44,450 nucleotides of DNA from an uncultured bacterium (GTDB lineage: Bacteria > Patescibacteriota > Minisyncoccia > Phycocordibacterales > GWA1-40-21). Shown piece after piece: positions 11,701-33,573 of this stretch. The notes below the pieces were generated by a model. The model did not search any database, was not told the DNA's origin, and was given only the letters and a program-made list of their open reading frames with translations. The position numbers and the translations under genes are program-made. The DNA lies in NCBI GenBank assembly GCA_903850545.1, contig CAINLW010000057.1, forward strand, positions 1 to 44,450. The letters run 5' to 3'. Position 1 is the stretch's first letter; each line of letters begins with the position of its first letter.

Positions 11701-14700
11701 AATAACAGTGATATAGGAACTAAAGCACCCGTATATTCTTTTGTTAATGCGACGACCACTTGTTTTGATCCAACGTCAGGTTATTGTACGAATAGTTACT
11801 ACGGCACTAAGATGGACCTAGTTGGTTGGTATCTTGAAAATGGTGTTCCTTATATAAAATTAATACCACCCCCACCAGACACTTGCGATGGTAATGGTGG
11901 TAAGTATGTGGAAGGAGGATTGTTTCAATGTCCAACTACTTATACACAAGAACATTTGAAATGTGTAGATATATGGAAAGCATCAAATTATGATACCAGT
12001 AGTATGATTTATCAATCTAAAGTTGATTGTTCTTATGCAAAAAGTGGAACAGTTGATGTACCATATTCTCCAATACTAACAAACCCTGAGCCGGTGCTAA
12101 TAAAAGAAGTTCCTGTTAAAACACTAGCGGAAAATGCTGTAAATAAAGGATCTGCACAAGTTGTTTTACCTAGTGATATATCCGGTGACAAATATCGCGT
12201 GAAGATTAGTTGTAATAACTTTGCGGGCGAATGCACAGATGGATTTAGTACTAGTCAATTTAATATTGTTAAACTACAATCCCCAAAAACTCTAACTATT
12301 AGCAAAACTGGTATTGGTAATATTGTTGGTGGAAACACACCTTGTAACGTCAACTTGTCTTCGTGTGAACAAAAATATGAGACTTTAAATGAAGTAAATT
12401 TAACCAATGAAGTAAATTTAACTGCTGATGTACCTAGTAATTCTGGTTTGATGTTTGTTAGTTGGGAGGGGGCATGTACTGGTACTGACAAAGATAAGTG
12501 CAAAATCACGATGGATAGTGATAAAACTGTAAAAGCAAAATTTTCTAATAAATATCTTACTCTTACTGCGGTTACGGCTGATCCACTATCAAAATTTTAT
12601 GGCTGGGTCGGTGATTGTATTACTGATGGAACCTGCGAACCATTTTGGTCTGAAAAATGTGGTGTTGGGAGTGCTGATAAATGTCAAATCGTGGTAAGTA
12701 GTGATCAATCGCTTTCACCGATATTTAAATCTCTAAGTCCTTGCACAGCAGATTCATATGAATATTCAACATATGGAATTTGTGAACCAAACGGTAAACA
12801 GTATAAAACCGTTACAAATATACCAGATTGTTCAGGTGGAGTTAGTCCAACAAATTTGAGCAATAGTTGTACATATGTACCGCCAACTAATAGTATTAAT
12901 TTAACTGGTGACGCATGGTCAGACACTATTGGCTGGATAAGTTTTAGAGGAAAGACTTCTTCTCAGCCAGCTACTTCAATTTTAGGAACAACCGGTGACA
13001 ATCCTACAGCCATAACAGTAGATAAGGCTGGTAATGTTTATACAGCAAACACAGGATCAGGTAATATCACCAAAATTACTCCAACTGGTGTAGTAACCAA
13101 TATTGGAAGCTCAATTAATTCGACAACTATATTGGGGATAGCAGTCGACTCAGTTGGTAATATTTATACAACAGATGAGGAAACAAATAATGTTACCAAA
13201 ACTACCCCAGCGGGTGTATCAACTCATATTTTAAGCCCCGGTGAAGGGACTCGTGGAGTTGTAACCGATTCAGCCAACAATGTTTATGTCACGAATTCTC
13301 AATCAAATAATATTACAAAAATTACTCCAGCAGGCGTGTCATCTATTTTTGCCACAATAGCAAAATTTGGGTCTTATCCTTCTGGTATAGTTATGGATTC
13401 GGCTGGTAACTTTTATACAGGAAATGGTAATTCAAAGAGTGTTGGTAAAATTACCACAAACGGCGTATCTACCATTTTTGGAAATACAGGAATTGGTCCA
13501 TATAACATAGCAATAGATAAATTCGGTAATATTTATACAGCAAATGCAGATTCATTTGATATTACTAAAATTACTCCTGCTGGTGCAACAACCACCTTTG
13601 CAACTTTTAGTTCTAGCCCAGGTAGTATAATAACCGATTCTATTGGTAATGTTTACGTTACGATTCAAGGCGTTATTATAAAAATTTCTCAAGATGGCAA
13701 ACAAAAAATTTATGCAAGTATCGGAGCTTCCGCTATTACAATAGATTCGTCTGACAATATTTATGCAATCACGAGTTCTGATGATTCGAGCACAGTTACC
13801 AAAATATCACTTGTTGAAGGGCCAGAGTACGGTGTTTCTATGGACAAATCGACAGGGGTTCTCAATGGTTATGCGTGGTCTGATAATATTGGATGGATAA
13901 AATTTGGTACTGATTTGTCTGGCTTTCCAATTAATGATAATGGCGGATCAGTCTCAGTAAGTGCCAGAATAGTTTCAGGTAAACTTGTTGGTTGGGCAAG
14001 AGCTTGTGCAGGAATGTATGATACTGAACAAGACCAAACATCACCAAACAATAGTTGTAGTGGAAGATCTAGAACAGACGGTTGGGATGGCTGGATTAGT
14101 TTTAAAGGATTTGGTACACATGGATCTTCCTACGAAGTTTCGTTTAATAATCCAAATTTTTCAGAGTATGCTTGGGGATCTGATGTAGTAGGCTGGATTA
14201 GTTTTAATGGAACTACTGCTGATGGTAATACTTATGGAGTAAAACTAGAATCAACAGATACCTCTTTAACAGACATTTCTTTAATAGCACCACCTAGTAT
14301 AAGTGCAAGTCCTTCTTATATTTTTAAAAACAGTACATCAACCATTACTTGGAGTTCACCCGATGCAAGTTCTTGTACTTTTAAAAAAGGAGATGTATCA
14401 ATTGATATTGGCACGACTGCGACTTCTGGTTCTTATATAACAGAGAGACTTAATACCGCTACAGTTTATACTGCTATTTGTTCAAACAGCAATCATACTG
14501 CAACTGGAATAAATTCGGCGACGGTAAATATAAAGCCAAATCCTGATTGCAACATTAATAATGAATGCTCAGATGGGTATTGGGGACTTTGTATTAATGG
14601 AACACAAACTTGTGTTGATGGAGGATATAAATATACATGTGACGCTCCAACAAAAAAATGTGTTGTTGGTGGCGTTGATGGTGGCGGAGGCAGAGGCAAC

Positions 14701-15330
14701 TGTCAGGGATTAATATATTCAGAGTGGATGCCAGAAACATGTCCTGATTCAGGAGTTAATATGGGGCAACGCACAAGAACAGTAATTGATGGATATCCAT
14801 CAGGGTGTAACACCGATGAAGATTTTAAAATGTTAATTCAAAAATGTACTCAAGGTAGTTCAAAATGTGAATCATATTCTTATGATTGGGGTTCGTGTCT
14901 AGGTTCTGATGAAAAAGAAACAAGTACTTTCGGCACGATGACAGTGACGGGAATACCTCTCGGATATCCAGAAGGTTGTTCTGGAGGTGAAGTTGAACCA
15001 ATAACATCCCAATCTTGCGGTTCACTTGTCCCAAAATCAACTTGTTTAGTTCCAGAAAATAATATTGTAAATAAAAATACACTTTGGAAGATAACACAAT
15101 CTTTTGATCCACTAAGTATTATAACCAGAAAATGGAGTGGTAAAAATGTATCCCAAACTTCTGGAGATATACCATATTTAAATAAAATTTATACAAAAGT
15201 TGGATTAAAAGATATGAACGTTGAAACAACCGGAACTATCTCAGTAGATTCAGTGGTACAAACATTTACATCATATTGTTCAACTTCAACAATGATGAAA
15301 CTAGATGACGGGGCGAATCAGGAGAGGTAA
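8770..15330 (+). CDS. Giant (2186 aa) membrane-anchored subtilisin-like (S8) serine protease fused to repeat, NHL-propeller, Cys-rich and PKD-like modules
   Basis: Order of parts: N-terminal TM helix; I9-like propeptide (VIVTLKPLADVESVKEIIIKNGGKI); S8 triad Asp in VAILDTGS (codon 9475), His in HGTSMAGIIAA (9595), Ser in GTSDSAPFVTG (10063); two P.GGE.W...I.W Ig-like modules; a 226-aa super-repeat x2 with DTCDG motifs; two InlB-B-repeat-like modules; seven GN(I/V)Y(T/V).....(I/V)TKITP.G blades (12960-13810); GYAWSDNIGWIKFG / GWISF repeats; four-Cys modules; PKD-like C-terminus. Confidence 0.85.
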   Translation: MKINPFFSSKKNIIITTTSIFLIFFGFFYLVINQNKTRIIPDPPKLTSPIESKSVLQAPLVTETSSIKAITSNLPELSSIIISPKTSVENVSTSSLPSPTYSKQTYTPIKSEYPKQVIVTLKPLADVESVKEIIIKNGGKIIDVKNWPTGKVIIANYPDKKTEEAIYSNSLFSNLMRGVGFSSFGNKLNESVNLIEEDVETAPLAQITDWGAIYVRADKAWSAGVLGEGVKVAILDTGSQKDLLDTSANIVKGANFTTNKTTGTVDSTQWDDDDGHGTSMAGIIAAVNNNIGVNGIAPKADLYIGKVLGGASSTCMSSCIVDGIYWAVSEGVDVINMSLTAGIGNSALATAVKYAYDNGVVVVASSGNGGLDGEGINAPAIYPEVIAVGAIGTDNLRAAFSSYGSQLELVAPGDGIIVPQRGNVFGVSRGTSDSAPFVTGVVALVLSKYPTMTPVEVRAKLNSSAIDLGEPGWDKYYGYGLVNAQDALTTRPPAKITLITPSGGERWMKGVQHEIRWSSDTLTSEDWVSIKLINKDNGVMYPVGININNSGSFMLAIPTDKPDSSSYYVEVSCGTDFIGTCQSSKSETFSVFSPPSTQAFKVFSPNGGEKWPQGATTSIEWTANYLGGSNVDVTLMQTQQIPKYSLKSQSGDWDNAVYQFFAEPTPGYFNWYWVYKYLGIRADNWSRESGSYWLEKLPTDTCDGNIGTDINNGIYVCPKISLSTSTFSCVDFAKSTKKPNDYWRRTVSCEYNNSDVGTEVPVYSLVFGSEIRTPYYSGSGWFIGNPPKADMVGYLYTSNTSPPVAQYDTISSMPPDTCDGDSSPAATTGMYSCPKTSTSEHIRCVDTWQATQGIYYQGYVDCSYINAGGTIPRYSIKSQSGDWDYNSYYAYIATPFVDKPTPAYWVYKNVRDFNYWDSGKWSAIHDTCDGNIGTDINNGIYVCPTVSPASSTFSCTDIARSKTMPDKYWERNVTCQYNNSDIGTKAPVYSFVNATTTCFDPTSGYCTNSYYGTKMDLVGWYLENGVPYIKLIPPPPDTCDGNGGKYVEGGLFQCPTTYTQEHLKCVDIWKASNYDTSSMIYQSKVDCSYAKSGTVDVPYSPILTNPEPVLIKEVPVKTLAENAVNKGSAQVVLPSDISGDKYRVKISCNNFAGECTDGFSTSQFNIVKLQSPKTLTISKTGIGNIVGGNTPCNVNLSSCEQKYETLNEVNLTNEVNLTADVPSNSGLMFVSWEGACTGTDKDKCKITMDSDKTVKAKFSNKYLTLTAVTADPLSKFYGWVGDCITDGTCEPFWSEKCGVGSADKCQIVVSSDQSLSPIFKSLSPCTADSYEYSTYGICEPNGKQYKTVTNIPDCSGGVSPTNLSNSCTYVPPTNSINLTGDAWSDTIGWISFRGKTSSQPATSILGTTGDNPTAITVDKAGNVYTANTGSGNITKITPTGVVTNIGSSINSTTILGIAVDSVGNIYTTDEETNNVTKTTPAGVSTHILSPGEGTRGVVTDSANNVYVTNSQSNNITKITPAGVSSIFATIAKFGSYPSGIVMDSAGNFYTGNGNSKSVGKITTNGVSTIFGNTGIGPYNIAIDKFGNIYTANADSFDITKITPAGATTTFATFSSSPGSIITDSIGNVYVTIQGVIIKISQDGKQKIYASIGASAITIDSSDNIYAITSSDDSSTVTKISLVEGPEYGVSMDKSTGVLNGYAWSDNIGWIKFGTDLSGFPINDNGGSVSVSARIVSGKLVGWARACAGMYDTEQDQTSPNNSCSGRSRTDGWDGWISFKGFGTHGSSYEVSFNNPNFSEYAWGSDVVGWISFNGTTADGNTYGVKLESTDTSLTDISLIAPPSISASPSYIFKNSTSTITWSSPDASSCTFKKGDVSIDIGTTATSGSYITERLNTATVYTAICSNSNHTATGINSATVNIKPNPDCNINNECSDGYWGLCINGTQTCVDGGYKYTCDAPTKKCVVGGVDGGGGRGNCQGLIYSEWMPETCPDSGVNMGQRTRTVIDGYPSGCNTDEDFKMLIQKCTQGSSKCESYSYDWGSCLGSDEKETSTFGTMTVTGIPLGYPEGCSGGEVEPITSQSCGSLVPKSTCLVPENNIVNKNTLWKITQSFDPLSIITRKWSGKNVSQTSGDIPYLNKIYTKVGLKDMNVETTGTISVDSVVQTFTSYCSTSTMMKLDDGANQER
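10690..12060 (+). repeat. Intragenic tandem super-repeat (2 x about 678 nt), each unit containing two DTCDG modules
   Basis: Unit 1 starts near KYSLKSQSGDWD and unit 2 near RYSIKSQSGDWD. A 44-nt stretch GGTAATATTGGTACAGATATTAATAATGGCATTTATGTATGTCC is identical at 10879-10922 and 11557-11600 (offset 678 nt), while the flanks are diverged. Confidence 0.85.
12388..12423 (+). repeat. In-frame 18-nt tandem duplication
   Basis: AATGAAGTAAATTTAACC followed by AATGAAGTAAATTTAACT, encoding NEVNLT NEVNLT. Confidence 0.9.
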
Positions 15331-15332
15331 AA

Positions 15333-15369
15333 TTAGTATATAGTATATGTATTTAGTATAAGGTATAAG
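15333..15369 (+). repeat. GTAT-rich post-stop element, copy b
   Basis: TTAGTATATAGTATATGTATTTAGTATAAGGTATAAG starts 3 nt after the TAA of the giant gene. Confidence 0.7.
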
Positions 15370-15417
15370 AAGATACAATAAAAAAGAGTTTGTTATTAAC
15401 GAACCCCTATTAATTGA

Positions 15418-17058: not shown

Positions 17059-19779
17059 ATGAAAAAATTATTTAATTTTATCTTTTTTAACAAAGAGAAA
17101 AGTCACACAACAAAATTAATTGCCGGTGTATTAATTCTTTCTTTTTTATTCCTCTCTACTCCCCAGGTTTCTTATGCGAAAAAGAAGTGGGTAAATAATG
17201 TTGTTAAGAGTGTCACCGATATAGCAACAGCGCCATTAGTTGCCGTTGGCAAAACAGTAGCCTTAGCATATGATGTGGTTAAAGCTGTGGTTGTTGATGC
17301 ACCAACTGGTATATATGAAGGAATAAGAAAGGCGCTTGATGGTAGTGGGGGTGGGAGCACGGGTAGTGGGAGCTCCGTGCCCAATTCTGTTATTAAGATT
17401 TCTCCTGGAACTAATCCACTAATAGATACAAATTATACAAAAATTTATGTTAGTGCGACAAATATTACTAATTGTGAATATGGTATAACTGGTAAAGACT
17501 TGGGATGGGGAGATAAGAACGGACCACTTACTGAGTTTAACACATCGTTTAATTCTGGAACTTTAACATCTGACAAAGAATTTAAGATTACTTGTTATAG
17601 GGGTGAATCAAAAATTGGAGAAGCAACTACAACCGTAATAGTACCACCAATTCCATTTCCAATAATTACTGCTGCAACAACAACTGTAGCTAATGGTGCA
17701 AACACAACAATTACCTGGAATGCTACTAGCAGTACTAATTGTATAATAACAAAAAGTGTTGGAGATAATGTAGTTTTGTCATGGACAAAAAATAATACTC
17801 TGGCAACTACACCTAATAAATATATATATGCACCAGACTCTCAATTACAAGGAACATTTTCATCCCCAACTGGTATAACGGTTAGTGGTGCAGATTTTGT
17901 GTATGTTACAGATACAGGAAATAAAACCTTTCAAAGATTTAATTCTACTGGTGCTCTTGTTACCAACATAGGTCCTGCACAATATACTTTTTCGAATCCA
18001 ACAAACGTAATTCCTGGCTCAGGTGATCCTGACCATATATATGTTTCAGATGCGGGTACTAATAATCGCATTGCAATATTTGATAATAACAAAGGAACTT
18101 ATACATCAAACACTTATTTTGGTGCAGGGCTACTTTTTCAACCGTCAGCAATAACAGCTATTAACAATTTTTTATATGTTGTTGATAAAGCAGAAGTAGC
18201 TGGCCGTATTAAAGAATTTGATACCGACGGAACTTTTCTGACGGCATTTGGAAGTGCACAATTAAGCAGTCCTTCAGGTATAGCAATTAATAAAACTTCC
18301 TCAGGAAATCCAGGTGCAATATATATATCAGATACAGGTCACAATCGTATTCAGATATTTAATTCTGACCACACTCCACTTTCTACCATTGGAGGTCCTG
18401 GTTCTGAAGACGGTAAGTTTACAAACCCACAAGGAATAGCAATAGATTCTGCGGGCAACTTATATGTTGCAGAGGCGGGTACTAATGATCGTATCCAAAA
18501 ATTTAGTCCAGATGGTGATTTTCTCTTGAAATTTGGTTCGACTGGTTCTGATAACAGTCAATTTAATAATCCAGAGGGGGTAACTGTTGATTCATCAGGA
18601 AATATATACGTCGCGGATACAGGTAATGGAAAAGTAAAAAAATTTCTACCACAAATTAGTTCAGAGGCAGATTCAGGTTCTATAACAACCGATACCACAT
18701 TCAAAGCAACCTGTGATTTTACAGCAACCTCTAAAAACGCCGCTGTAACAACTAGTGGTATTGTAATAGTATCAATTATTCCTCCTCCAGTTTGTACTAC
18801 AGATATGAACTCTTGTACATCTTGGGGAACTTGTGTAGATAATAGCCAAACTTGTACCGGATCATATACAATAATTCCGTCTGGATGTGAAGGTTCTGTT
18901 CCAACACCTACTAGATCTTGCATTTCTCTTACTTTAAAGGCAGCTTCTTCTACTATTTCAAAATATGCTTCCACAAATATCATTTGGAATTCAGCCAATA
19001 CCACTTTTTGTACGACCACCAAAAAAATGGGGAACGGTGACATTATTGTTTTTTCAACCTCAACCTCAAATCTAGGTAAAACATCGGAAGCCCTTGCATC
19101 AACTACAGTTTTTACGACAACATGCACAAATAGAAACCCAGTAAATGATACGAGAAAATTTTCTGGCTATGCTCAATCGGTTAAGATGGGTAAGATAAGT
19201 TTTGGAGGAAATACTCCTACTCAAATTGCAAATGTGATTCCGCAACTCGCTATAGGTGATAATTACCAGGGTGGTAAGTTGGCTTATATTTTACAATCAG
19301 GTGATCCTGGTTATGACGCTAGCGTAAAGCATGGCCTAATAGCGGCAACAGTCGACCAGAGTGCGGGTATAAGATGGTATAATGGAAGTGGTATAGCAAT
19401 AACGAGTGCAAGAGCAAAAACATTAGGTACTGGACTAGCAAACACAAATAATATTGTTGCTAGTCAGGGAGCTATTGCTAATAGTTATGCCGCAGGTTTA
19501 GCTCGAGCTTATAACGGCGGTGGGTACAGTGATTGGTATTTGCCATCTAGTGATGAATTATATAAATTAATTGTAAATAAAGTAGCTATTGGTGGTTTTT
19601 CTAACGGAGATGCATATGGAAATGGAAGTTATTACTGGAGTTCATCGGAGGCATATATTCCTGCAACGTTTACTCCAGGTAACCATGCATGGGCCATTAG
19701 CACTTATATGAATCCTCTTGAACCAGCTGTGAGTGGCAAGGAACAAATTTTTCGCGTCCGTGCCGTTAGATCTTTTTAA
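17059..19779 (+). CDS. Secreted NHL-repeat beta-propeller protein with Ig-like modules and C-terminal DUF1566 (Lcl-C-like) domain
   Basis: Signal peptide ending VSYA. Canonical NHL repeats (FTNPQGIAIDSAGNLYVAEAGTNDRIQKFSPDG, FNNPEGVTVDSSGNIYVADTGNGKVKKF and others). Modules of the T.TW.S....C type are shared with the two neighbouring large proteins. C-terminal GGYSDWYLPSSDELYKL...YWSSSE is typical of DUF1566. Confidence 0.75.
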   Translation: MKKLFNFIFFNKEKSHTTKLIAGVLILSFLFLSTPQVSYAKKKWVNNVVKSVTDIATAPLVAVGKTVALAYDVVKAVVVDAPTGIYEGIRKALDGSGGGSTGSGSSVPNSVIKISPGTNPLIDTNYTKIYVSATNITNCEYGITGKDLGWGDKNGPLTEFNTSFNSGTLTSDKEFKITCYRGESKIGEATTTVIVPPIPFPIITAATTTVANGANTTITWNATSSTNCIITKSVGDNVVLSWTKNNTLATTPNKYIYAPDSQLQGTFSSPTGITVSGADFVYVTDTGNKTFQRFNSTGALVTNIGPAQYTFSNPTNVIPGSGDPDHIYVSDAGTNNRIAIFDNNKGTYTSNTYFGAGLLFQPSAITAINNFLYVVDKAEVAGRIKEFDTDGTFLTAFGSAQLSSPSGIAINKTSSGNPGAIYISDTGHNRIQIFNSDHTPLSTIGGPGSEDGKFTNPQGIAIDSAGNLYVAEAGTNDRIQKFSPDGDFLLKFGSTGSDNSQFNNPEGVTVDSSGNIYVADTGNGKVKKFLPQISSEADSGSITTDTTFKATCDFTATSKNAAVTTSGIVIVSIIPPPVCTTDMNSCTSWGTCVDNSQTCTGSYTIIPSGCEGSVPTPTRSCISLTLKAASSTISKYASTNIIWNSANTTFCTTTKKMGNGDIIVFSTSTSNLGKTSEALASTTVFTTTCTNRNPVNDTRKFSGYAQSVKMGKISFGGNTPTQIANVIPQLAIGDNYQGGKLAYILQSGDPGYDASVKHGLIAATVDQSAGIRWYNGSGIAITSARAKTLGTGLANTNNIVASQGAIANSYAAGLARAYNGGGYSDWYLPSSDELYKLIVNKVAIGGFSNGDAYGNGSYYWSSSEAYIPATFTPGNHAWAISTYMNPLEPAVSGKEQIFRVRAVRSF

Positions 19780-19807: not shown

Positions 19808-22066
19808 ATGACTAAATCACTAAAACAAAATTTAATAATTCTAGGTATAGCAGGATTAATATTAATTTGTATATTCTACGTATTGCCAATATTGAAAGTT
19901 GGAGCACAGACAGTTTTATATAAAGGAATTGTTTTTGGAACTCCGAGTTCTTCGAACCCAACATTTAATTGTTCACCATGGGTTAATGATTTAGGAGCTT
20001 TTATACAAAGTTCTTCAAGTCTTACACATATTAATTATCAAGGCAATTATAGTACCCAAGATGCAGCTATTGTTGCTTCTGTAAATTCTTTGTCAAACTG
20101 TTTGACTACAGGTGGTTTTACAGAAATGTTGAATAATACTCAATTTACATCTTATACTGGGCGTGGTTGTGTCGGGACAAATTGTTGTTTAGCTTTGGGC
20201 TATAACACCAATGGAAGATATTGGATAAAGAGTTCTCTTGCTGGCGCATACGCCCCTTATTCTGCGTGTGGCAGTTCTTACTCCTGTTCTTACAGTGGAG
20301 TATTTCAGGAATATAATTTCATGAGTCCAAACTTATCAATGAAGTCAGTCGGGCCACTACACTATTCAAATGCTACTGAGTGTCCAAATGTAACTTCTGG
20401 TTATTTCCAAAATTTTACTACGAACGTACAAATTCCGATGTTTCAGCAGAAAACTATTTCTGTCTGTACTACAGATTCGTATACATATTCTGATTGGGGT
20501 GCTTGTCAACCTGAAGGAAAAAGATATGAAACGGTAATTAATTCGCCAAATTGTATAGACGGTGTGGCTCCAATATTAAATCAAGACTGCACTTATTCAG
20601 TTGTGAATAATGAAGTTTTTTTGACAGCACCTGTTAATAATGCCAGTTTTTTAACTGGTTATGCATGGTCAGATAATATGGGTTGGATAAAATTTGGAGA
20701 CTTGTTAGGTTTCCCATCAACAGTAGGAACTACAGCATCGGATGCAAAAATAGTTGGAAACAATATAGTCGGATGGGCGAGAGCATGTATTGGAACAAAA
20801 TTTGGTGATTGTTCCACTATGGAAAACACTACTACTGGTGATTGGAATGGATGGATAAGCTTTAAGGGAACAGGCTATGGCGTTTCAGTGGATAATGATG
20901 GAAACCTCTCAGGCTATGCCTCTGGTTTTGATATGATTGATTTTACAGGAGTTAAATTATCGCAAGCTATTGTTCCGCAGACAGTAGCCACATCTACAAT
21001 TGTAAATGTAATAGCCTCTCCTTCTGTAACGGTAAATTTTTATATCACACCTTCTCCTATAACTATTTTATCAGGAGCTTCCACAACTCTTTATTGGAGC
21101 TCAACCAACGCTGATTCTTGTAGTTTTAAAAAGGGAGAAGATGCATTTAATACTGGCGTAACTGCAACGTCAGGTTCTGTCACATCAGGAATTCTCAATA
21201 ACACAACATCTTTTTCTGCCACTTGTTCAAATAGCGATCATTCAGCAACAAAGACGACTTCTTTGACTGTGAATGTGGCCCCTCCTTGTAAGGGCGTTAC
21301 TGCTTGCAATCCAACTTCTTGGGGAGAATATGGATCTTGTGGTTTGAATGGAGTAAAAACTAGAACTTGCAAAGAAGGAGGTTACTCTATGACCCCAGCT
21401 GGATGTATAGGTTCTGTATCAGCACCAATAGGGATAACAACACTCGGTTGCAATGGTTGTTCTGGGCCAGATTGTACATGCATAGGGTATGATTATGAAT
21501 GGACACCAGAAACTTGTCCTGCCGAAGGTTATAGGACTCCAGTTACACCAATAAAAACTCATTATATTATTTGTCCTAGTGAAAATCCACCACTTGAAAA
21601 ACAATCATGTATACCAAAGAGCAGTCCTTGTACTGGCTACAATTATGACAATTCTTCAGAAGTTTGCGAAGATGGCATAATAGTCAAAACTATAGATTCT
21701 GGTATTCCAAATGGATGTTCTGGTGGTGTAGAACCTACTCTGGTAGATTTCTGCCCTGTTAATGGAGGATCAGGAACAGTTGGATCATATTGTATTGCTT
21801 CACAAGCACAAGGTCCAGATATTAATGGAAAATTCTTAGTAAACAAAAACACAAAATGGACAATGAGAAACCCTATGGGAGCGGTAACTGTTGATAAATG
21901 GAATGGCACCAATGTTTTGAATTTGATAGGAAATCCGCTAGAGAAAATTTATACAACAGTTGGTACAAAAATTATTACTGGTACTGGTGAAGTTAATGGC
22001 GAAACAACATACTGTCATGCAACCACAACAATGAAAGTGGGTCCAACTTCTGGAGGGGAGATATAA
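19808..22066 (+). CDS. Membrane-anchored/secreted Cys-rich surface protein, paralogue of the C-terminal half of the 2186-aa protein
   Basis: N-terminal TM helix. Module order is shared with 13860-15330: CTTDSYTYSDWGACQPEGKRYETV (compare CTADSYEYSTYGICEPNGKQYKTV), GYAWSDNMGWIKFG, GWARACIG, GWISFKG, an Ig-like ...LYWSSTNADSCSFKKGE... module, four-Cys modules, and a PKD-like C-terminus VNKNTKW...KIYTTVG...TYCHATTTMKV. Confidence 0.65.
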   Translation: MTKSLKQNLIILGIAGLILICIFYVLPILKVGAQTVLYKGIVFGTPSSSNPTFNCSPWVNDLGAFIQSSSSLTHINYQGNYSTQDAAIVASVNSLSNCLTTGGFTEMLNNTQFTSYTGRGCVGTNCCLALGYNTNGRYWIKSSLAGAYAPYSACGSSYSCSYSGVFQEYNFMSPNLSMKSVGPLHYSNATECPNVTSGYFQNFTTNVQIPMFQQKTISVCTTDSYTYSDWGACQPEGKRYETVINSPNCIDGVAPILNQDCTYSVVNNEVFLTAPVNNASFLTGYAWSDNMGWIKFGDLLGFPSTVGTTASDAKIVGNNIVGWARACIGTKFGDCSTMENTTTGDWNGWISFKGTGYGVSVDNDGNLSGYASGFDMIDFTGVKLSQAIVPQTVATSTIVNVIASPSVTVNFYITPSPITILSGASTTLYWSSTNADSCSFKKGEDAFNTGVTATSGSVTSGILNNTTSFSATCSNSDHSATKTTSLTVNVAPPCKGVTACNPTSWGEYGSCGLNGVKTRTCKEGGYSMTPAGCIGSVSAPIGITTLGCNGCSGPDCTCIGYDYEWTPETCPAEGYRTPVTPIKTHYIICPSENPPLEKQSCIPKSSPCTGYNYDNSSEVCEDGIIVKTIDSGIPNGCSGGVEPTLVDFCPVNGGSGTVGSYCIASQAQGPDINGKFLVNKNTKWTMRNPMGAVTVDKWNGTNVLNLIGNPLEKIYTTVGTKIITGTGEVNGETTYCHATTTMKVGPTSGGEI

Positions 22067-22089
22067 AATGAAGTTGTAAATTTGAAAGT

Positions 22090-22121
22090 AGAAAGACGGC
22101 ACGTAAACGTGCCGTCTTTCT
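22090..22121 (+). terminator. Intrinsic terminator ending the surface-protein gene block
   Basis: 14-bp perfect stem AGAAAGACGGCACG / CGTGCCGTCTTTCT with loop TAAA, followed by a T-rich tract. Confidence 0.8.
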
Positions 22122-22140
22122 ATTGATTTATATTTTACTG

Positions 22141-22167
22141 TTGAACTTAATTATTTTCTGGTATAAT
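22141..22167 (+). promoter_or_regulatory. Putative pilB operon promoter (extended -10)
   Basis: TTGAAC (22141-22146), 15-nt spacer, TGgTATAAT (22159-22167). Sits directly upstream of the structured leader. Confidence 0.5.
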
Positions 22168-22171
22168 TACT

Positions 22172-22296
22172 GAGAATGATTTGGTAACGAGAGTTACCCC
22201 AGTGAAATATCCGCTTAAGGCGGATTCCAGCAGTAGCTGGATTTCACAGGGTGATGATTTTCTAAAGCTCATTATCATTCGCTAAGAAAATCAATC
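22172..22296 (+). promoter_or_regulatory. Conserved structured 5' leader, pilB copy
   Basis: P1 GAATGAT (22174-80) pairs with ATCATTC (22274-80). P2 GGTAAC-gaga-GTTACC. P3 CCCaGTGAAAT (22198-208) pairs with ATTTCACaGGG (22241-51) and encloses two small hairpins. P4 GATGATTTTCT (22253-63) pairs with AGAAAATCAATC (22285-96), ending on the ATG. Confidence 0.5.
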
Positions 22297-24063
22297 ATGA
22301 TCCTAGAAAACAAACAACTAAAAGATTTTTTAATTGATACAGGTCTTGTTACAAAGACAGAGTATGATGAAATTGAAAATCTTTACAATAAGGGAAAAAT
22401 AGTAGATCCTCCAGAAAAGGTCTTGGTCAGTCAGGGAAAAATTTCTGAAGATGATTTGCGTAGAGCTCAGGCTTACGTGTCGGGTATTCCTTTTGTTGAT
22501 TTAAAAGATCAAAAAATCGATTTGTCTGTGCTTTCTCTTATCCCAGAACCCCTAGCAAGAAAGAATAATATAATAGCTTATAGAAAAAACATTGATTCGC
22601 TTGAAGTGGCGATGCTTGATATTCAAAATTTATCTACGATTGAATTTGTAAAAAAGAAAGTTGGACTAAAAATTTTACCGAGATTGACCGATTCTTCGTC
22701 AATAAAAAATGCAATACTTCAATATCAAAAAAGTTTGAAAGCAGAGTTTGGCGATTTGATACAAAAAGATATCCAATCTTTAAAAGATTCCGGTAGTTTG
22801 GAGATTGGAGTAAAAGGGGAGAGTATGGAAGATTCTTTGAAAAAAATGGCAGAAGATATTCCCATTGTTCGTATTGTTGAAACGCTTTTAAAACACGCAG
22901 CTTTACAAAACGCTTCAGATATTCACATCGAATGTATGGAAAATGACGCGCTTGTCAGATATAGAATTGATGGACTTTTGCATGACGCGATGATTCTTCC
23001 AAAAATTGCCGCCACCGGTATAACCGCTAGAATAAAAGTGCTTTCAAATTTAAAACTTGATGAAAAAAGGTTACCGCAAGACGGAAGATTTAATGCCGAT
23101 ATTAATGGAGAAAAAGTTTCTTTTAGAGTTTCTATCATACCGACATATTTTGGAGAAAAAACGGTTATGCGACTTTTGCGAGAAAATGCTGGTTCGTATT
23201 CTTTAGAGACTATGGGTTTTCACGGCGTAAATCTTGAAAGATTACATGAAGCAATGAAGCAAGCAAATGGAATGATTCTTACAACAGGTCCAACAGGAAG
23301 TGGAAAAACAACAACTCTTTATACAATATTAGAGTTACTTAATTCAGTAGGTGTAAACATTGCAACGATTGAAGACCCGATTGAATATCAGGTGGCTAGA
23401 ATAAACCAAACTCAGGTAAAACCCGAAATTGGTTTTTCTTTTGCAAATGGACTTAGATCTTTAGTAAGACAAGATCCAGATATAATAATGGTGGGGGAAA
23501 TTAGAGATAATGAAACAGCTTCTCTTGCTGTGAACGCTGCTCTTACTGGTCATGTGGTGCTTTCAACTCTTCACACAAACTCGGCTGCCGGAGCTATACC
23601 GAGGCTTATGGATATGAAAATCGAACCTTTTCTTCTTGTTTCAACCATAAATATTGTTATTGCTCAGAGACTAATAAGAAAGCTTACAGGAGCAAAAGAA
23701 AGATATATTTTAACAAAAGACGAATTGGCATCTCTCGCGAGAATTGTAGATTTGGATAAAGTTTTGGCAATATTAAAAGAGGAAAATATTGTTGGAAAAA
23801 ATGACGACTGGAAAAATATCTATTTTTATAAAGCGAAAGAATCAATAGATTCAAAAGACGGTTATTCTGGAAGAATTGGAATTCACGAGGTATTGAAAAT
23901 GACACCAGCAATAAGGGATCTTGTTATAAAGGGATCAACTTCTCAAGACATTGAAAATCAGGCAAAAAAAGAAGGAATGTTAACGATGATTGAAGACGGG
24001 ATTTTTAAATGTGTAACAGGAATGACGACAATTGAGGAAGTTTTGAGGGTCGTTACGGAGTAA
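22297..24063 (+). CDS. pilB: Type IV pilus assembly ATPase (GspE/PilB family)
   Basis: GSPII_E N-terminal-like region. Walker A GPTGSGKTTT, Walker B/Asp box RQDPDIIMVGEIRD, His box LTGHVVLSTLHTN. Confidence 0.93.
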   Translation: MILENKQLKDFLIDTGLVTKTEYDEIENLYNKGKIVDPPEKVLVSQGKISEDDLRRAQAYVSGIPFVDLKDQKIDLSVLSLIPEPLARKNNIIAYRKNIDSLEVAMLDIQNLSTIEFVKKKVGLKILPRLTDSSSIKNAILQYQKSLKAEFGDLIQKDIQSLKDSGSLEIGVKGESMEDSLKKMAEDIPIVRIVETLLKHAALQNASDIHIECMENDALVRYRIDGLLHDAMILPKIAATGITARIKVLSNLKLDEKRLPQDGRFNADINGEKVSFRVSIIPTYFGEKTVMRLLRENAGSYSLETMGFHGVNLERLHEAMKQANGMILTTGPTGSGKTTTLYTILELLNSVGVNIATIEDPIEYQVARINQTQVKPEIGFSFANGLRSLVRQDPDIIMVGEIRDNETASLAVNAALTGHVVLSTLHTNSAAGAIPRLMDMKIEPFLLVSTINIVIAQRLIRKLTGAKERYILTKDELASLARIVDLDKVLAILKEENIVGKNDDWKNIYFYKAKESIDSKDGYSGRIGIHEVLKMTPAIRDLVIKGSTSQDIENQAKKEGMLTMIEDGIFKCVTGMTTIEEVLRVVTE

Positions 24064-24161: not shown

Positions 24162-24539
24162 ATGGAATATAAAAAAGTAGGAGAAAAAGTTATATTTCCT
24201 GAGTTATCTTATACAATTAATGGAGTTTTGTTTTCTGTACACAACGATTTGGGCAGGTTTGCTAGAGAAAAACAGTACGGTGATCTTTTAGAAAAGAGAT
24301 TGAAAGAAATAAATTTATTATATAAACGTGAATTGCCGATATCAGGTTCTGGCAACATAGCTGATTTCGTTATTGAGGATAAGGTTTTATTGGAAATTAA
24401 ATCTACCAGGTTTTTGACAAAAGATTCTTATAGACAAATACAAAACTACTTACAACAAACAGGTTTGAAACTTGGTTTTCTTGTGAATTTTAGAAGCGGA
24501 TATTTAAAAATAGTTAGGATTATTAATATAAGTAAATGA
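24162..24539 (+). CDS. GxxExxY-family protein (PD-(D/E)XK-like fold), small selfish-cassette-type gene
   Basis: The family pattern as I recall it is VH..LG....E..Y...L...L......RE........DF(V/L)(V/I)EDKV(L/I)(L/V)E(I/L)K........Q...YL...GLKLG.L(V/I)NF. It matches VHNDLGRFAREKQYGDLLEKRL...ADFVIEDKVLLEIKS...QIQNYLQQTGLKLGFLVNF. Confidence 0.8.
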   Translation: MEYKKVGEKVIFPELSYTINGVLFSVHNDLGRFAREKQYGDLLEKRLKEINLLYKRELPISGSGNIADFVIEDKVLLEIKSTRFLTKDSYRQIQNYLQQTGLKLGFLVNFRSGYLKIVRIINISK

Positions 24540-24621: not shown

Positions 24622-25830
24622 ATGAAATTTAAATTCAAAGCGGTAAAAAAAGATGGAGGAAAATATGAAGGGGAAAAAGAATCCGCTGATAGATTTTCTC
24701 TATACGAGGAATTAAAAGCGGAGGGAGATACACTTCTTTCTACAGTTGAAGTAAAAAAATCAAAAATAGAAATTAACCTACCCTTTTTTAATTATGTACC
24801 TGAGCATCAAAAAATAATTTTTGCGCAAAATTTGGGATCAATGATAAATGCAGGATTGTCTCTTGCAAAGGCTTTAAATATTTTGCAAAAACAAATAAAA
24901 AATAAAAGATTTAAACAAATTATTGAATCACTTGAACAAAATGTAAGAAACGGAAAAACCTTGAGTCAATCTTGTTCGGAATTTCCAGATGTGTTTCCAA
25001 AATTATTTACATCAATGGTTAAGGCAGGTGAGGAGTCTGGACGACTTTCTCAATCATTGAAAATAGTTGCAACCCAATTAGATAATAGTTATAAACTAAA
25101 AAAGAAAATAAAGGGAGCAATGATATATCCTGGAATTATTATGTCCGTAATGATTGTTATCGGAGTACTTCTGATGATTGTGGTAGTGCCAAGTATTACA
25201 GCTACTTTTAAAGATTTAAATATAGAACTACCTTTTCTTACCAAGGCTATTATAGCAATAAGTGATTTTCTTAAAAATGATATTCTCCTTGTTCTTTTCG
25301 GTGTAATAATTATTATTACTGGTTTTTACTTATTTCTTAAATCAAAATTTGGTAAAAGAGTATTTGATTTTACAGTTTTAAAACTACCTGTTATTGGCGA
25401 GCTTGTAAAAGAAACAAATTCTGCGAGATTAACCAGAACCATTTCTTCTTTGTTGTCTTCCGGTGTTTCTTATACTGAAGCAATTTCGATTACAAGAGAT
25501 GTTGTTCAAAATAGATATTATAAAGATATTTTGACTACTGCTATGAGTACGGTAGAAAAAGGGGGTGCGATTTCAAGTGTTTTTATTGAAAACGAAAAAT
25601 TGTGTCCAATCTTTCTTGCCGAGATGACCGTTGTTGGAGAAGAAACAGGAAAGCTTCCCGAAATGCTTCTAGAGGTAGCACTTTTTTATGAAGAAGTTGT
25701 GGATCAAAAAACAAAAAATATGTCGACGATTATTGAACCTGTTTTGATGGTGATTATAGGAATTGCTGTAGGATTTTTTGCATTAGCAATTATAAAACCG
25801 ATTTATTCTTTGACGGATTCAATACAATAA
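24622..25830 (+). CDS. pilC: Type IV pilus platform protein (GspF/PilC family)
   Basis: Two T2SS-F repeats (FAQNLGSMINAGLSLAKAL... and LTRTISSLLSSGVSYTEAI...), three TM segments and a length of 402 aa, typical of PilC. Confidence 0.92.
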   Translation: MKFKFKAVKKDGGKYEGEKESADRFSLYEELKAEGDTLLSTVEVKKSKIEINLPFFNYVPEHQKIIFAQNLGSMINAGLSLAKALNILQKQIKNKRFKQIIESLEQNVRNGKTLSQSCSEFPDVFPKLFTSMVKAGEESGRLSQSLKIVATQLDNSYKLKKKIKGAMIYPGIIMSVMIVIGVLLMIVVVPSITATFKDLNIELPFLTKAIIAISDFLKNDILLVLFGVIIIITGFYLFLKSKFGKRVFDFTVLKLPVIGELVKETNSARLTRTISSLLSSGVSYTEAISITRDVVQNRYYKDILTTAMSTVEKGGAISSVFIENEKLCPIFLAEMTVVGEETGKLPEMLLEVALFYEEVVDQKTKNMSTIIEPVLMVIIGIAVGFFALAIIKPIYSLTDSIQ

Positions 25831-25860
25831 ATAGTATAAGGAATTAGTATAAGTATATAG
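25831..25860 (+). repeat. GTAT-rich post-stop element, copy c
   Basis: ATAGTATAAGGAATTAGTATAAGTATATAG begins at the first nt after the pilC TAA. Confidence 0.7.
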
Positions 25861-25911
25861 AAATACAAAATACGGATGCAAATGAAAATTAAAAAATAAA
25901 TTAAAGACAAA

Positions 25912-26370: not shown

Positions 26371-26372
26371 TA

Positions 26373-26402
26373 ATAGTATTAGTGTCTAGTATAAGTATAA
26401 GG
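26373..26402 (+). repeat. GTAT-rich post-stop element, copy d
   Basis: ATAGTATTAGTGTCTAGTATAAGTATAAGG starts 3 nt after the pilin TAA and ends 10 nt before the next ATG. Confidence 0.7.
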
Positions 26403-26412
26403 AAAATTTTAA

Positions 26413-27637: not shown

Positions 27638-27640
27638 GAA

Positions 27641-27670
27641 ATAGTATACAGTATAAGTATTTAGTATATG
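27641..27670 (+). repeat. GTAT-rich post-stop element, copy e
   Basis: ATAGTATACAGTATAAGTATTTAGTATATG starts 4 nt after the TAA and runs into the ATG at 27668. Confidence 0.7.
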
Positions 27671-29476
27671 GAAGAAATACAAAACAAAACAAAACGATTA
27701 AATATTAAAGATGGTTATGTGATGTTACTCACCGCTGTTATTTTTATGATGGTTTCTCTTATAATTATATTTGGTCTTGCTACGCCGATAACCAAACAAA
27801 TTTTTGCTACTAGAGATATTTGGAGCGCAAAGCAGAGTTATTATCTTTCAGAAGCTGGAGCGGAGGATGTAATGTATAGATTGAAAGATAGTACATTTGC
27901 CTCAAAACTTGGAACAACAGAAACATTAACTCTAGATGGTTATAATGCCATTACCCAAATCACAGCTGATACAAATGGGAAAACAATAAGCACCTTATCC
28001 GATCAAAATGGTTATAAAAAAAGTTTAGAAACAAAAGTTGTAATGGGATCTGGAACGTCTTTTAATTATGGAATTCAAACAGGAGATGGAGGATTTACTA
28101 TAACTGGTGGTTCTCGTGTTGTTGGAAATGTTTACTCAAATGGAGATATTTTAGGTGGTGCAGGTATTCATATTACAGGTTCAGCTATTGCTGCTTCTGG
28201 CGGGAGTGTTTTTAAAGATGAAAATAATGAAACTCCATTGCCACCTTCAAGTAGTATTACCTTTAATAATACTGGTGCTTCAAGAGATTTCGCGCAAAGT
28301 TTTCAACCGGGGACAACCTCAGTAATCCAAAAAATTAGAATATATATTAAAAAAACAAATTCACCTGCTAGTTTTGAGGTTGATTTAATGTCAGATAATT
28401 CGGGAAATCCAGGTTCTGTTTTGGCGGAGTCCACACTTTCTTCAAGTCTTGTAACCACAAATTATGGTTGGATAGATTTAGTTTTTAGTTCAAGTGTTAC
28501 TTTAACAAAGGACACAACTTACTGGTTTGTTATAAAAGGAGATGTTAAAAGCGGAAAAACATCAACAGATACATATACTGTTGGAGCAAATAATTTATAT
28601 ACAAGAGGCGTAGCAAAAACAGGTGTAATAGGAGGAACTTGGAACATAACAGGTCTTGATGGATATTTTTCTCTATATTTAAGTTCAGTTCACGGAAAAA
28701 TTTTAGGTAATGAAGGAAATTATTTTTATATCGGATCTACTTCCACAGACATGGCTTGGTCAGGAGATGTAAGTCATGTAAGTGTTACAGGTGACCTTTA
28801 TTGTCAGACCGGTGTAAATAATGCCAATGGAAAAACTTGTAACACTAGTAGAGAACTTCCCGGGACTGTTTCAATGCCAGTTTCAGAGGCGAATATTGAA
28901 CAATGGAAATCAGAAGCTGTTCTCGGGGGAACATATAATGGTAATTATTTAGTTGATTGGGATGGAGATGTTTTAGGTCCAAGAAAAATAACTGGTAATT
29001 TAACCGTAAATGGTGGAGGAACTCTTATAGTTACTGGTACAGTGTGGGTACAAGGGAATCTTATTGTTACAGGTGGAGGGAAAGTAAAAATTTCTCCAGC
29101 ACTCGGTGCCAACAGTGTTATTCTTGTGACAGATAAATACGCACAAATTGATGGTGGTGGACAATTTGAGGGTTCAGGAACAGTTGGTAGTTATCCAGTT
29201 GTTGTATCAACTTCTGTTTGTCCAAATACAACACCTTGTTCAACAAATAATTCCGCAATTTCTCTTTCTGGAGGAGCTGGAGCTGTAGTATTAGTTGCCC
29301 CATATGGAAAAGTAAATGTAAATGGAGGATCTGGGGCGCGTTCAGTTAGTGGAGATTCAATATATATAAGTGGGGGTGGTACGGTTACCTATGAGACAGG
29401 CTTGGCAAATCTTTCGTTTAGCAGTGGCCCTTCTGGCGGATGGTCAATTTCAGGATGGAAGGAACTTGAGAATTAG
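27668..29476 (+). CDS. Large pilus-associated protein (PilX-like N-terminal helix, Gly-rich beta-helix-like body)
   Basis: N-terminal KDGYVMLLTAVIFMMVSLIIIFGLA helix without Glu+5. Gly-rich repeats (GGSRVVGNVYSNGDILGGAGIHITGSAIA; GNLTVNGGGTLIVTGTVWVQGNLIVTGGGKVKI). Last gene of the pilus operon before a strong terminator. Confidence 0.45.
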   Translation: MEEIQNKTKRLNIKDGYVMLLTAVIFMMVSLIIIFGLATPITKQIFATRDIWSAKQSYYLSEAGAEDVMYRLKDSTFASKLGTTETLTLDGYNAITQITADTNGKTISTLSDQNGYKKSLETKVVMGSGTSFNYGIQTGDGGFTITGGSRVVGNVYSNGDILGGAGIHITGSAIAASGGSVFKDENNETPLPPSSSITFNNTGASRDFAQSFQPGTTSVIQKIRIYIKKTNSPASFEVDLMSDNSGNPGSVLAESTLSSSLVTTNYGWIDLVFSSSVTLTKDTTYWFVIKGDVKSGKTSTDTYTVGANNLYTRGVAKTGVIGGTWNITGLDGYFSLYLSSVHGKILGNEGNYFYIGSTSTDMAWSGDVSHVSVTGDLYCQTGVNNANGKTCNTSRELPGTVSMPVSEANIEQWKSEAVLGGTYNGNYLVDWDGDVLGPRKITGNLTVNGGGTLIVTGTVWVQGNLIVTGGGKVKISPALGANSVILVTDKYAQIDGGGQFEGSGTVGSYPVVVSTSVCPNTTPCSTNNSAISLSGGAGAVVLVAPYGKVNVNGGSGARSVSGDSIYISGGGTVTYETGLANLSFSSGPSGGWSISGWKELEN

Positions 29477-32277: not shown

Positions 32278-32280
32278 CTG

Positions 32281-32313
32281 TAGTATAAGTATTTAGTATT
32301 AGTATAAAAATAC
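32281..32313 (+). repeat. GTAT-rich post-stop element, copy f (left inverted repeat of the four-helix-bundle cassette)
   Basis: TAGTATAAGTATTTAGTATTAGTATAAAAATAC starts 4 nt after the metG TAA and ends at the ATG at 32314. It contains the 18-nt GTATTTAGTATTAGTATA (32289-32306). Confidence 0.75.
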
Positions 32314-33490: not shown

Positions 33491-33500
33491 TATTTAGTAT
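33471..33500 (+). repeat. GTAT-rich post-stop element, copy h
   Basis: TATTTAGTATAAGTATATAGTATTTAGTAT overlaps the last codons and the TAG of tatD. Confidence 0.7.
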
Positions 33501-33501
33501 T

Positions 33502-33529
33502 GTCATTCCCGTGAAGACGGGAATCCAGG
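33502..33529 (+). repeat. GTCATTCCCG-type palindromic element, third copy
   Basis: GTCATTCCCGTGAAGACGGGAATCCAGG, compared with GTCATTCCCGCGAAGGCGGGAATCTAGG at 2341. The stem changes are compensatory (CGCG..GGCG becomes CGTG..GACG). Confidence 0.75.
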
Positions 33530-33573
33530 TTCATGTTTTGTATTCTTTCATTTTCTGCTATAGTTTAACTATA

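Follow-up and report, generated by a model that had tools for sequence, protein, structure and literature searches.

A conserved, structured element abutting the start codons of housekeeping genes in Patescibacteria

We analyzed a 44,450-nt stretch of DNA (the window; contig CAINLW010000057.1 of assembly GCA_903850545.1, forward strand) from a bacterium assigned to Patescibacteriota, Minisyncoccia, GWA1-40-21, the NusA homologues of which are labeled Candidatus Paceibacterota or Patescibacteria. An initial annotation had proposed that the leaders of pilB, nusA, and rplK share an undescribed structured RNA. The analysis confirmed this observation and supported its interpretation in part. The three leaders carry a real, conserved, structured, and previously undescribed element, located at 22196-22296 (plus strand), 4955-4804 (minus strand), and 38767-38905 (plus strand), respectively, and the genes 3' of these copies encode a PilB/GspE-type ATPase, NusA, and L11. 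The core 22-mer occurs three times in the window at up to three mismatches, compared with 0.01 occurrences expected by chance. With about even confidence, we interpret the element as a generic modular 5'-leader cassette of Paceibacteria (Parcubacteria) which acts in cis and post-transcriptionally at the start codon. In addition, a DNA-level or repeat-element component, which had not been foreseen, is real, because the element is patchily present, occurs in tandem and nested copies, is homogenized within genomes, and shows no excess of G·U pairs.

Family, fold, and covariation

The element belongs to a family that is spread over many genomes. A scan of one genome per species, using the 21-nt core ATTTSACNGGGTGATRATTTT as an exact pattern, returned 77 loci, about 64 of which are in 25 Patescibacteria genomes, with up to 8 to 10 per genome. 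The hosts are labeled Zambryski-, Taylor-, Wolfe- and Nomurabacteria or Minisyncoccia, together with some metagenome-assembled genomes labeled Saccharibacteria. In the true matches, the core is followed by a 14- to 23-nt loop, N'AAAATC-A-ATC, and then ATG; 13 core matches without this tail (11 in unrelated phyla plus loci L025 and L083) served as negative controls. A covariance model built from the two main helices (S1 and S2, described below) and a 2-bp loop helix added copies outside the search pattern, in some of which the upper stem of S1 is GTGCAG/CTGCAC. A metagenome scan anchored on the S1 arms alone yielded at least 20 additional copies of candidate phyla radiation (CPR) type. Diverged metagenome copies have different S2 stems, GACTATTT/AAATAGTC and GGCAATTTATAA/TTATAAATTAGCC, which still pair and abut the ATG.

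The 3' end of the element is placed at true start codons. Of the 99 copies that were aligned, 82 have their 3' end exactly at the ATG, and in another 5 it is at most 3 nt away; the remaining rows are mirror-strand modules of the upstream hairpin S0. All ATG-abutting copies are oriented in sense. An open reading frame (ORF) of at least 40 amino acids begins at the abutting ATG in 61 of the 62 unique copies. This ATG specifies the true N terminus of Fpg (MPELPEV), NusA (MIDLKVI), and S12 (MPTINQL), and Fpg and NusA start identically in genomes with and without the element. Every element-bearing gene starts with ATG, compared with 33 of the 39 ordinary genes of the window. The initial annotation had suggested a control element for three particular operons, a view that did not hold: the element is a generic leader which precedes more than 30 gene families, without metabolic coherence, in at least 25 genomes. 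The downstream genes encode proteins of transcription (RpoB, RpoD, and NusA), translation (S12, S4, L3, L16, L11, L7/L12, L34, EF-G, SerS, and PheT), division (FtsA, FtsZ, FtsW, and MraZ), and DNA repair (RecA, RecO, RuvA, Fpg, and a DnaQ-like exonuclease), as well as SecE, ClpP, HtpX, Ndk, ComEC, PilB, PilC, and a few unknowns; no copy was found upstream of an RNA gene. The same genes keep the element across deep divergence, with protein identities of 59% for NusA, 57% for Fpg, and 50% for SecE. About three-quarters of the copies follow a co-oriented gene, and ten lie within 4 to 33 nt of its stop codon.

The element consists of helix S1, then the AU-rich hairpin S2, and, after 0 to 3 nt, the ATG. 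The interior of S1 is occupied by two variable hairpins (H1 and H2), by a loop of 1 to 11 nt, or by an AT-rich insert of 72 to 120 nt with a TGnTATAAT-like box; such promoter-box inserts are found outside rplK at other genes in L029, L040, L043, L054, and L057. When 41 full-length copies were folded independently by minimum free energy, S1 was formed in 38 and S2 in 37, and exactly two inner hairpins were formed in 35 despite the unrelated sequences of H1 and H2. The H1/H2 inserts had a mean z of -3.7 relative to shuffled sequences. At the junction of S1, H1, and H2, zero or one nucleotide is unpaired; conservation lies in the helices, and the sequences and loops of H1 and H2 vary freely. The core is conserved beyond the downstream proteins, and H1 and H2 drift with compensation. 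Two noncanonical features are also conserved: S1 contains a mismatch, either A·A or A·G, and the 3' strand of S2 has a bulged A.

Covariation supports both helices, which correspond to P3 and P4 of the initial annotation. In a 99-row alignment, 97.6% of the cells pair, compared with 87.4% in column shuffles, and the covariation score, at 0.094 in shuffles, is 0.283 in the alignment, which 0 of 500 shuffles reached; as this alignment was fitted to the model and contains related sequences, the figures describe consistency with the structure and not a formal probability. Slid registers of the alignment pair at 61% or less. Double-sided changes occur at all nine S2 pairs and at both loop-helix pairs, and the closing pair of S2 covaries through all four Watson-Crick types. 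The compensatory types persist when the alignment is restricted to the 82 sense rows ending exactly in ATG.

Many copies carry the upstream hairpin S0, e.g., GTAAATTA-AGAAACGAAGTGAC-TAATTTAC, and many others are without it. The stem of S0 shows covariation from locus to locus, and the loop of S0 is reverse complementary to the consensus of the S2 loop. The complementarity of the upstream region to the S2 loop reached -12.0 kcal/mol, compared with -8.1 kcal/mol in shuffled controls (P ~ 1e-9), and the upstream region is slightly more complementary to its own S2 loop than to those of other copies (P = 0.015), which is suggestive of S0-S2 kissing specific to the cognate pair. The pairing of an upstream box with the S2 loop had been proposed as P1; its complementarity holds throughout the family, but a mutual exclusion of P1 and P4, one of the two topologies considered in the initial annotation, is not clear. 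P1 could compete with the loop mini-helix, and no conserved alternative to S2 was found. The stems differ in polarity: in S2, the 5' strand is rich in U and the 3' strand, by the AUG, is rich in A, and in S0 the arrangement is the opposite. As neither stem mirrors the other, the complementarity of the loops is not simply the trace of an inverted duplication; the unmirrored polarity of S2 is as expected if S2 is adapted to initiation. A long S0:S2 duplex serving as an RNase III substrate was rejected, as the loops are complementary and the stems are not.

In many copies, an extended -10 promoter is located 25 to 55 nt 5' of S1, and transcription thus covers the element. Promoters within the core were also considered, either reading TTGAC of ATTTGAC as a -35 box or taking the AAAAAT that precedes the ATG as the -10 box of a leaderless mRNA; the spacings are unsuitable, and this proposal is further disfavored by the S2 covariation, which links the putative -35 and -10 regions. 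A generator of leaderless mRNA has no support, ordinary genes having leaders of 12 to 45 nt. In L076 (around 3020-3075, minus strand), three GTGGGA boxes, which resemble MraZ operator repeats, lie 5' of the element preceding mraZ, and the element thus sits between the operator/promoter region and the mraZ ATG.

The initial annotation had placed the element outside the known structured classes, which agrees with our searches. Rfam 15 gave zero matches in the whole window at the gathering threshold, and the same scan of four family-bearing loci found one tRNA and nothing else. In E-value mode, the best matches for 22100-22330 were at chance level (folP with 15.3 bits against a threshold of 99, and C/D-box snoRNAs with 22 bits or less). 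The copies are neither intragenic nor randomly oriented, and no paper describing the element was found in the literature. No similarity was found in phage or plasmid records, and a phage or plasmid origin was accordingly rejected. Three other structures were rejected as well: a box C/K-turn at GUGAUGA, as CUGA or a sheared G·A partner is not suitably placed; a tRNA-like structure, none being found by ARAGORN; and an attC site, as the order of the arms is opposite to R''..R'.

The three leaders of the window

The sequence statements of the initial annotation on the promoter, P1 to P4, and the three copies were all reproduced. Real base pair swaps separate the window copies: in S1, GTGAAAT/ATTTCAC versus GTCAAAT/ATTTGAC (G-C to C-G); in S2, GATGATTTT/AAAATCAATC versus GATAATTTT/AAAATTATC (G-C to A-U); in P1, GAATGAT/ATCATTC versus GAATGG/CCATTC; and in P2, GGTAAC/GTTACC versus GGGTGG/CCACCC. 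The claim of compensatory change in all four helices stood to this extent, but the rplK copy has neither P1 nor P2. The folding z values of the leaders were -5.35 for pilB, -6.79 for nusA, and -0.15 for rplK, the last of which has a long AT-rich insert in S1. As claimed earlier, Shine-Dalgarno (SD) sequences are missing in the window; its ordinary genes have A/T-rich leaders in which the motif is absent. In the subgroup to which the window belongs, S0 is reduced to a GA-rich box and the P2 hairpin.

The pilB leader contains the following features.

22141-22167, plus strand: promoter, with TTGAAC (22141-46), a 15-nt spacer, and the extended -10 box TGgTATAAT (22159-67)
22172-22180, plus strand: GA-rich box GAGAATGAT, the 5' strand of P1, in which GAATGAT (22174-80) is complementary to ATCATTC (22274-80) in the S2 loop
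22183-22198, plus strand: P2 hairpin GGTAAC-GAGA-GTTACC, in which GGTAAC (22183-88) pairs with GTTACC (22193-98)
22196-22252, plus strand: S1 (P3) with a three-way junction, ACCCC-A-GTGAAAT (22196-208) pairing with ATTTCAC-A-GGGT (22241-52)
22209-22225 and 22226-22241, plus strand: inner hairpins H1 and H2, respectively, enclosed by S1
22253-22296, plus strand: S2 (P4), GATGATTTTCT (22253-63) pairing with AGAAAATC-A-ATC (22285-96)
22297-22299, plus strand: ATG of pilB, directly 3' of S2

The promoter was found as the initial annotation had described it, and it lies 5' of the element, which is therefore transcribed as the 5' untranslated region. S2, with the loop sequence TC-AT-TATC-AT-TC, ends exactly at the ATG, again as described. 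The GA-rich box and P2 are a degenerate form of the S0 module of other genomes. The same promoter is kept in the relative L006 (TTGAAC..TGATATAAT), where the element is absent. The sole call in a terminator scan was the terminator of the upstream gene (22087-22124), and no U-run follows S1, H1, H2, or S2, as an intrinsic terminator or attenuator would have.

Several ORFs were noted around pilB. A PD-(D/E)XK nuclease ORF lies between pilB and pilC (24162-24539 of the window), and in L006 a GIY-YIG ORF (3709-3978) is inserted between the pilB promoter and pilB, which is itself split into two ORFs; both are homing-endonuclease-like insertions around pilB. Large ORFs are located upstream of pilB at 8770-15330, 17059-19779, and 19808-22066 of the window. 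One of the encoded proteins has 2,186 amino acids and internal repeats of about 40 amino acids (families D1 to D3), and another, of 752 amino acids, has no Pfam match. In the relatives L006 to L008, large proteins with weak or no recorded Pfam match adjoin pilB at the same position. These large proteins are probably pilus-associated surface proteins.

The nusA leader contains two tandem S1 units and an upstream hairpin, which corrects the earlier account.

4958-4993, minus strand: S0 hairpin AAATAAAATA-AGGAGCTTATGCGAC-TATTTTATTT; a similar module is retained in L006
4924-4955, minus strand: S1 unit 1, CCCCGTCAAAT (4955-45), a 9-nt loop, and ATTTGAC-TA-GGG (4935-24)
4899-4874, minus strand: P2-like hairpin GGGTGG..CCACCC
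4877-66 with 4856-46, minus strand: S1 unit 2, CCCCGGTCAAAT with ATTTGACGGGG
4844-36 with 4812-04, minus strand: S2, GATAATTTT with AAAATTATC
4803-4801, minus strand: ATG of nusA, directly after S2

S1 unit 1 is followed by the degenerate tail GTGAAAATATT. The downstream part of the leader, from the P2-like hairpin to the ATG (4899-4801), scores 54.9 bits in the covariance model. The nusA promoter lies on the minus strand in the region 4995-5061 (TTGACA at 5061-56 and TAATAT at 5039-34), and a G+C-rich hairpin with a U-run, GAAGTTCGCC-GGTG-GCGAGCTC-ATTTTTTT, is found immediately 3' of it. This hairpin and U-run are retained in the element-free relatives L006 to L008, around 9830-9900. It has the look of a promoter-proximal attenuator, possibly serving NusA autoregulation. 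Divergent from nusA is a gene for a lone 126-amino-acid Cas2-like/PaaX_M protein (ORF 5286-5666), which adjoins nusA in same-strain contigs too (L001). It is flanked by a 26-nt repeat, TTTGCAATTCAGCKATAGCKTAATTG, present in three copies at 5123-5148, 5234-5259, and 5692-5717 of the window.

The rplK copy scores 79.7 bits in the covariance model. The earlier account is also corrected here, as the copy is without P1 and P2 and holds a promoter-like box in the S1 loop.

38767-38780, plus strand: 5' arm of S1, AACCCCAGTGAAAT, beginning 4 nt after the nusG stop codon
between the S1 arms, plus strand: AT-rich insert of 72 nt, carrying the promoter-like TGaTATAAA (38818-26)
38853-38864, plus strand: 3' arm of S1, ATTTCACAGGGT
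38865-38903, plus strand: S2, GATGATTTTT with AAAAATCAATC (38893-903), followed by AA
38906-38908, plus strand: ATG of rplK

Promoter-bearing S1 inserts are also present in the rplK leaders of L014 and L041. In the window and in three further element-bearing genomes (L014, L041, and L044), rplK is not followed by rplA. The window (38906-40002 and 40174-42376) instead has folate and nucleotide genes, which encode a cytidylyltransferase, dCMP deaminase, ThyA, and, on the opposite strand, DHFR; in L014 and L041, rplK is succeeded by ndk. The rplA product, uL1, is the usual regulator of the rplK leader. Because rplA does not follow rplK, we infer that the window organism belongs to the uL1-lacking subgroup of Parcubacteria, which tends to be without the anti-SD motif.

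Possible modes of action

In the reading that we favor, that of a leader cassette working at the start codon, the 3' strand of the weak, AU-rich S2 hairpin is rich in A and would form the initiation region from -1 to -11, which S2 would present or partly occlude. Further U-A and G·U pairs could lengthen S2, so that the A and U of the AUG would pair with the invariant GU of GGGU. S1, a sequence-conserved helix of 11 to 12 bp with a conserved A·R mismatch, directly adjoins S2, on which it probably stacks, and may clamp S2 in a defined fold whatever is upstream, whether a promoter, a preceding cistron, or another unit. We infer action at the RNA level, an effect on translation, and a trans-acting partner, which could be the ribosome, an RNA-binding protein, or an RNase; the partner is proposed because conservation of the mismatch, the bulged A, and the sequences of the helices goes far beyond what pairing needs. 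The element would thus serve core housekeeping genes, in a lineage without SD pairing, as a shared module for translation initiation or processing. In this reading, copies also spread or become homogenized within genomes through gene conversion or duplication. The start region is slightly more occluded than at ordinary genes (probability of being unpaired, 0.43 versus 0.50; P = 3e-4), and the occlusion of -11 to +2 by S2 is weak.

A bolder form of this proposal, which we consider unlikely, is that the cassette is a cis-encoded substitute for the SD:anti-SD helix, resembling an internal ribosome entry site and loading ribosomes in a lineage that lost the anti-SD, uL1, and often bS21. The 3-bp base of S2 with its bulged A would open, and the 7-bp upper S2 (GAUUUUN/N'AAAAUC), spanning about -5 to -11, would lie where an SD helix docks on the 30S platform near h26, with S1 and the junction as a sequence-specific handle. 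If the 16S tail is canonical, its AUCACCU would be able to base-pair with GGGUGAU; none of the loci retrieved contains a 16S gene. In Parcubacteria, the anti-SD motif was detected in 48%, and its loss overlaps the uL1-lacking group (Tsurumaki et al., PMC9297842); bS21 is often absent, and 16S h26, which contacts the SD helix, is unusually conserved (PMC9297842).

Several observations weigh against a leader that acts as RNA. Strand comparisons were neutral or gave no RNA signature. In 50 of 68 copies, the more stable fold is that of the antisense strand. In the defined helices, G·U is about as frequent as A·C (20 versus 19), and a second count gave 27 G·U, 13 of which are register artefacts, versus 23 A·C. 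The pairs of H1 and H2 comprise 519 Watson-Crick, 6 G·U, and 0 A·C. In the copies with a promoter in the S1 loop, such as the rplK copy of the window, transcripts from the inner promoter cannot form S1. The nusA and pilB leaders of L006 to L008, with NusA proteins 91, 84, and 79% identical to that of the window, are without the element, which is therefore dispensable at individual loci; these three relatives conserve the promoters of both genes, and their pilB leader is just about 8 to 14 nt long. The trans-acting partner is hypothetical. The absence of the element in close relatives indicates that single sites are gained or lost on short time scales, and an ancient nusA or pilB leader was rejected, as these relatives keep the promoters without the element.

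Such patchiness among close relatives, a presence/absence polymorphism, is what a selfish or neutral dispersed palindromic repeat would show, similar to REP/BIME, miniature inverted-repeat transposable elements, or Correia sequences, which spreads by transposition or gene conversion and has only secondary effects such as RNase III cleavage. We regard this explanation as rather unlikely on balance, but much of the behavior of the family fits it. Units are in tandem in the nusA leader of the window and the recA leader of L065, an S1-like unit is nested within the S2 loop in L036 and L053, and stand-alone S1 hairpins lie distant from start codons (L075:5190, L012:22, and L047:4838). H1/H2 identity is 0.64 between different genes of the same genome, compared with 0.51 for unrelated pairs (P = 7.5e-9), and five genes of JAPLZG01 have nearly identical H1/H2. 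The helices are near-perfect Watson-Crick without G·U excess, the S0 loop is reverse complementary to the S2 loop, and S1 look-alike hairpins occur in REP-like arrays of unrelated diderm bacteria. However, a repeat of this kind would not explain the fixed orientation and the ATG junction (exact in 82 of 99 copies and within 3 nt in 5), nor the retention at the same housekeeping genes across lineages of 50 to 60% protein identity. The core is more conserved than the proteins while H1/H2 drift in a compensated manner, and a conserved A·R mismatch and bulged A are not expected of simple inverted repeats. On terminal inverted repeats, the picture is mixed: the S1 arms are inverted repeats, but the stems of S0 and S2 have opposite polarity and do not mirror each other, and many copies are without S0. 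Inspection of flanks showed no evident target-site duplication, although no systematic search was made, no phage or plasmid record matched, and the full model does not match the diderm arrays.

The equal structure potential of both strands, and the equal rarity of G·T and A·C, would also suit an element acting as DNA, i.e., a platform for a protein or RNA polymerase, or a cruciform, at housekeeping promoters. This is less probable still, in spite of the S1 arms that flank TGnTATAAT-like boxes (38818-26 of the window, L014, L041, L029, and L040), the 3' strand of S0, which is often TATAAT about 7 to 9 nt before S1, and the conservation of the stems in sequence beyond mere pairing. The spacing of the S1 arms, from 1 to about 120 bp, misfits a dimeric protein site; the H1 and H2 hairpins persist with free sequence; the closing pair of S2 takes all four Watson-Crick types; and true promoters lie 5' of the whole element in many copies. 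Moreover, the end of the element is locked to the ATG and not to the transcription start, and the TATAAT of S0 is not strict, as TGTAAT, TATGAG, and TTCAAG occur. By far the least credible explanation is a riboswitch or an autoregulatory leader of the ribosomal-protein type, in which a ligand or protein at the three-way junction would switch between P1 and P4. A three-way junction does adjoin a hairpin that occludes the start codon, an upstream-box/S2-loop pseudoknot is possible, and several ribosomal-protein genes are among the targets. Yet essentially no unpaired junction nucleotide is conserved, the loops of H1 and H2 vary freely, the interior of S1 is replaceable by a 1- to 11-nt loop or a 72- to 120-nt insert, neither a conserved terminator nor a mutually exclusive alternative fold was found, and Rfam gave no match. 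In addition, the housekeeping genes are too heterogeneous (rpoB, recA, ftsZ, clpP, pilB, fpg, and serS) for a riboswitch regulon.

Other repeats were noted in the searches and in the window. The metagenome anchor on S1 alone mostly retrieved tandem or nested arrays of CCCCAG-N7...N7-(N)GGGG hairpins on diderm contigs with a G+C content of about 0.43 (L096 at 1-500, 1680-2150, and 3040-3576; L108, L137, L182, and about 90 other loci). The arrays have varying 7-mers and linkers such as GGGGCAGGC or GGGGTAAAC, are often near AGCTGAT/AGCTCAT tandem repeats and small ORFs, and are on contigs encoding Wzz/Wzy, porin, SurA, and Fer4 proteins. Because the full model does not match them, they were treated as a separate look-alike. 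A short AT-rich repeat of the window, with a consensus of about TAGTATAAGTATTTAGTATAAGTATAAGGAAA, lies in gaps between co-oriented genes of the pilus operon and its neighbors, just past one stop codon and ahead of the next start (15331-15385, 25829-25863, 26371-26405, 27639-27693, 32278-32312, and 36952-36999). A second type of intercistronic signal, in a genome without SD sequences, is a possible reading of this repeat. A 36-nt G+C-rich hairpin repeat, AGWATTGTCATTCCCGYGAAGRCGGGAATCYAGGTT, is present in two copies (2334-2369 and 33496-33531) in an otherwise AT-rich genome; the second copy overlaps the listed GTG start of ORF 33511-34467, so this start call is doubtful.

Significance and comparison with known systems

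CPR/Patescibacteria form a large uncultured share of bacterial diversity and have unusual ribosomes. How start codons are selected without SD sequences and an anti-SD tail is an open question, for which the element gives a testable handle. If the cassette substitutes for SD pairing, it would mark a privileged translation regime of core housekeeping genes. If it proves to be a palindromic repeat that was domesticated, it would provide an unusually clear example of a repeat family that became fixed at orthologous 5' untranslated regions across deep lineages, and a useful marker for start-codon annotation and taxonomic binning of Paceibacteria. In either reading, it is a new RNA/DNA motif family fit for Rfam-style curation.

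The nearest parallels among dispersed repeats are Correia elements (CREE/NEMIS) of Neisseria and ERIC/IRU sequences, which are quasi-palindromic units of about 100 to 170 nt, present in many copies and co-transcribed, and which form long hairpins. Repeats of the Correia type often lie between a promoter and its gene, in some cases carry promoter-like boxes, vary in presence between strains, and may be nested or in tandem. The element shares with these repeats its size, copy number, frequent position between promoter and gene, co-transcription, hairpins, occasional promoter-like boxes, variable presence, and nesting. Unlike them, it is always in sense, its 3' end lies 0 to 3 nt from a true ATG, and it stays at the same genes across 50 to 60% protein identity; judged by stem polarity, its ends do not look like true inverted repeats, and neither a target-site duplication nor a link to a transposase was seen. 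REP/BIME sequences of enterobacteria and pseudomonads likewise have a palindromic unit, comparable with S1, that is single, in tandem, or within operons, but REPs, which are associated with a RAYT transposase, are mostly 3' of genes, in either orientation and unrelated to start codons, whereas the element is 5' of genes and at the ATG.

Hairpins near start codons are known from the MS2/Qβ replicase operator, the targets of T4 RegA, the split ribosome-binding sites of the T4 genes 25 and 38, and the fourU and ROSE RNA thermometers. The element resembles these in having a hairpin at the initiation region, and its conserved bulged A and helix sequence suggest recognition by a factor; its AU-rich S2 could melt or be bound, thereby tuning initiation. 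These hairpins are single-gene or phage specific and act with an SD sequence, whereas the element serves dozens of housekeeping genes without SD sequences and has the obligatory adjacent S1. Ribosomal-protein leaders, such as the L1-binding rplK leader and the L10 and L20 leaders, are similar as structured 5' untranslated regions, and the element precedes rplK, rplL, rpsL, rpsD, and rpoB. However, those leaders are operon-specific mimics of rRNA sites, whereas the element is the same across unrelated operons.

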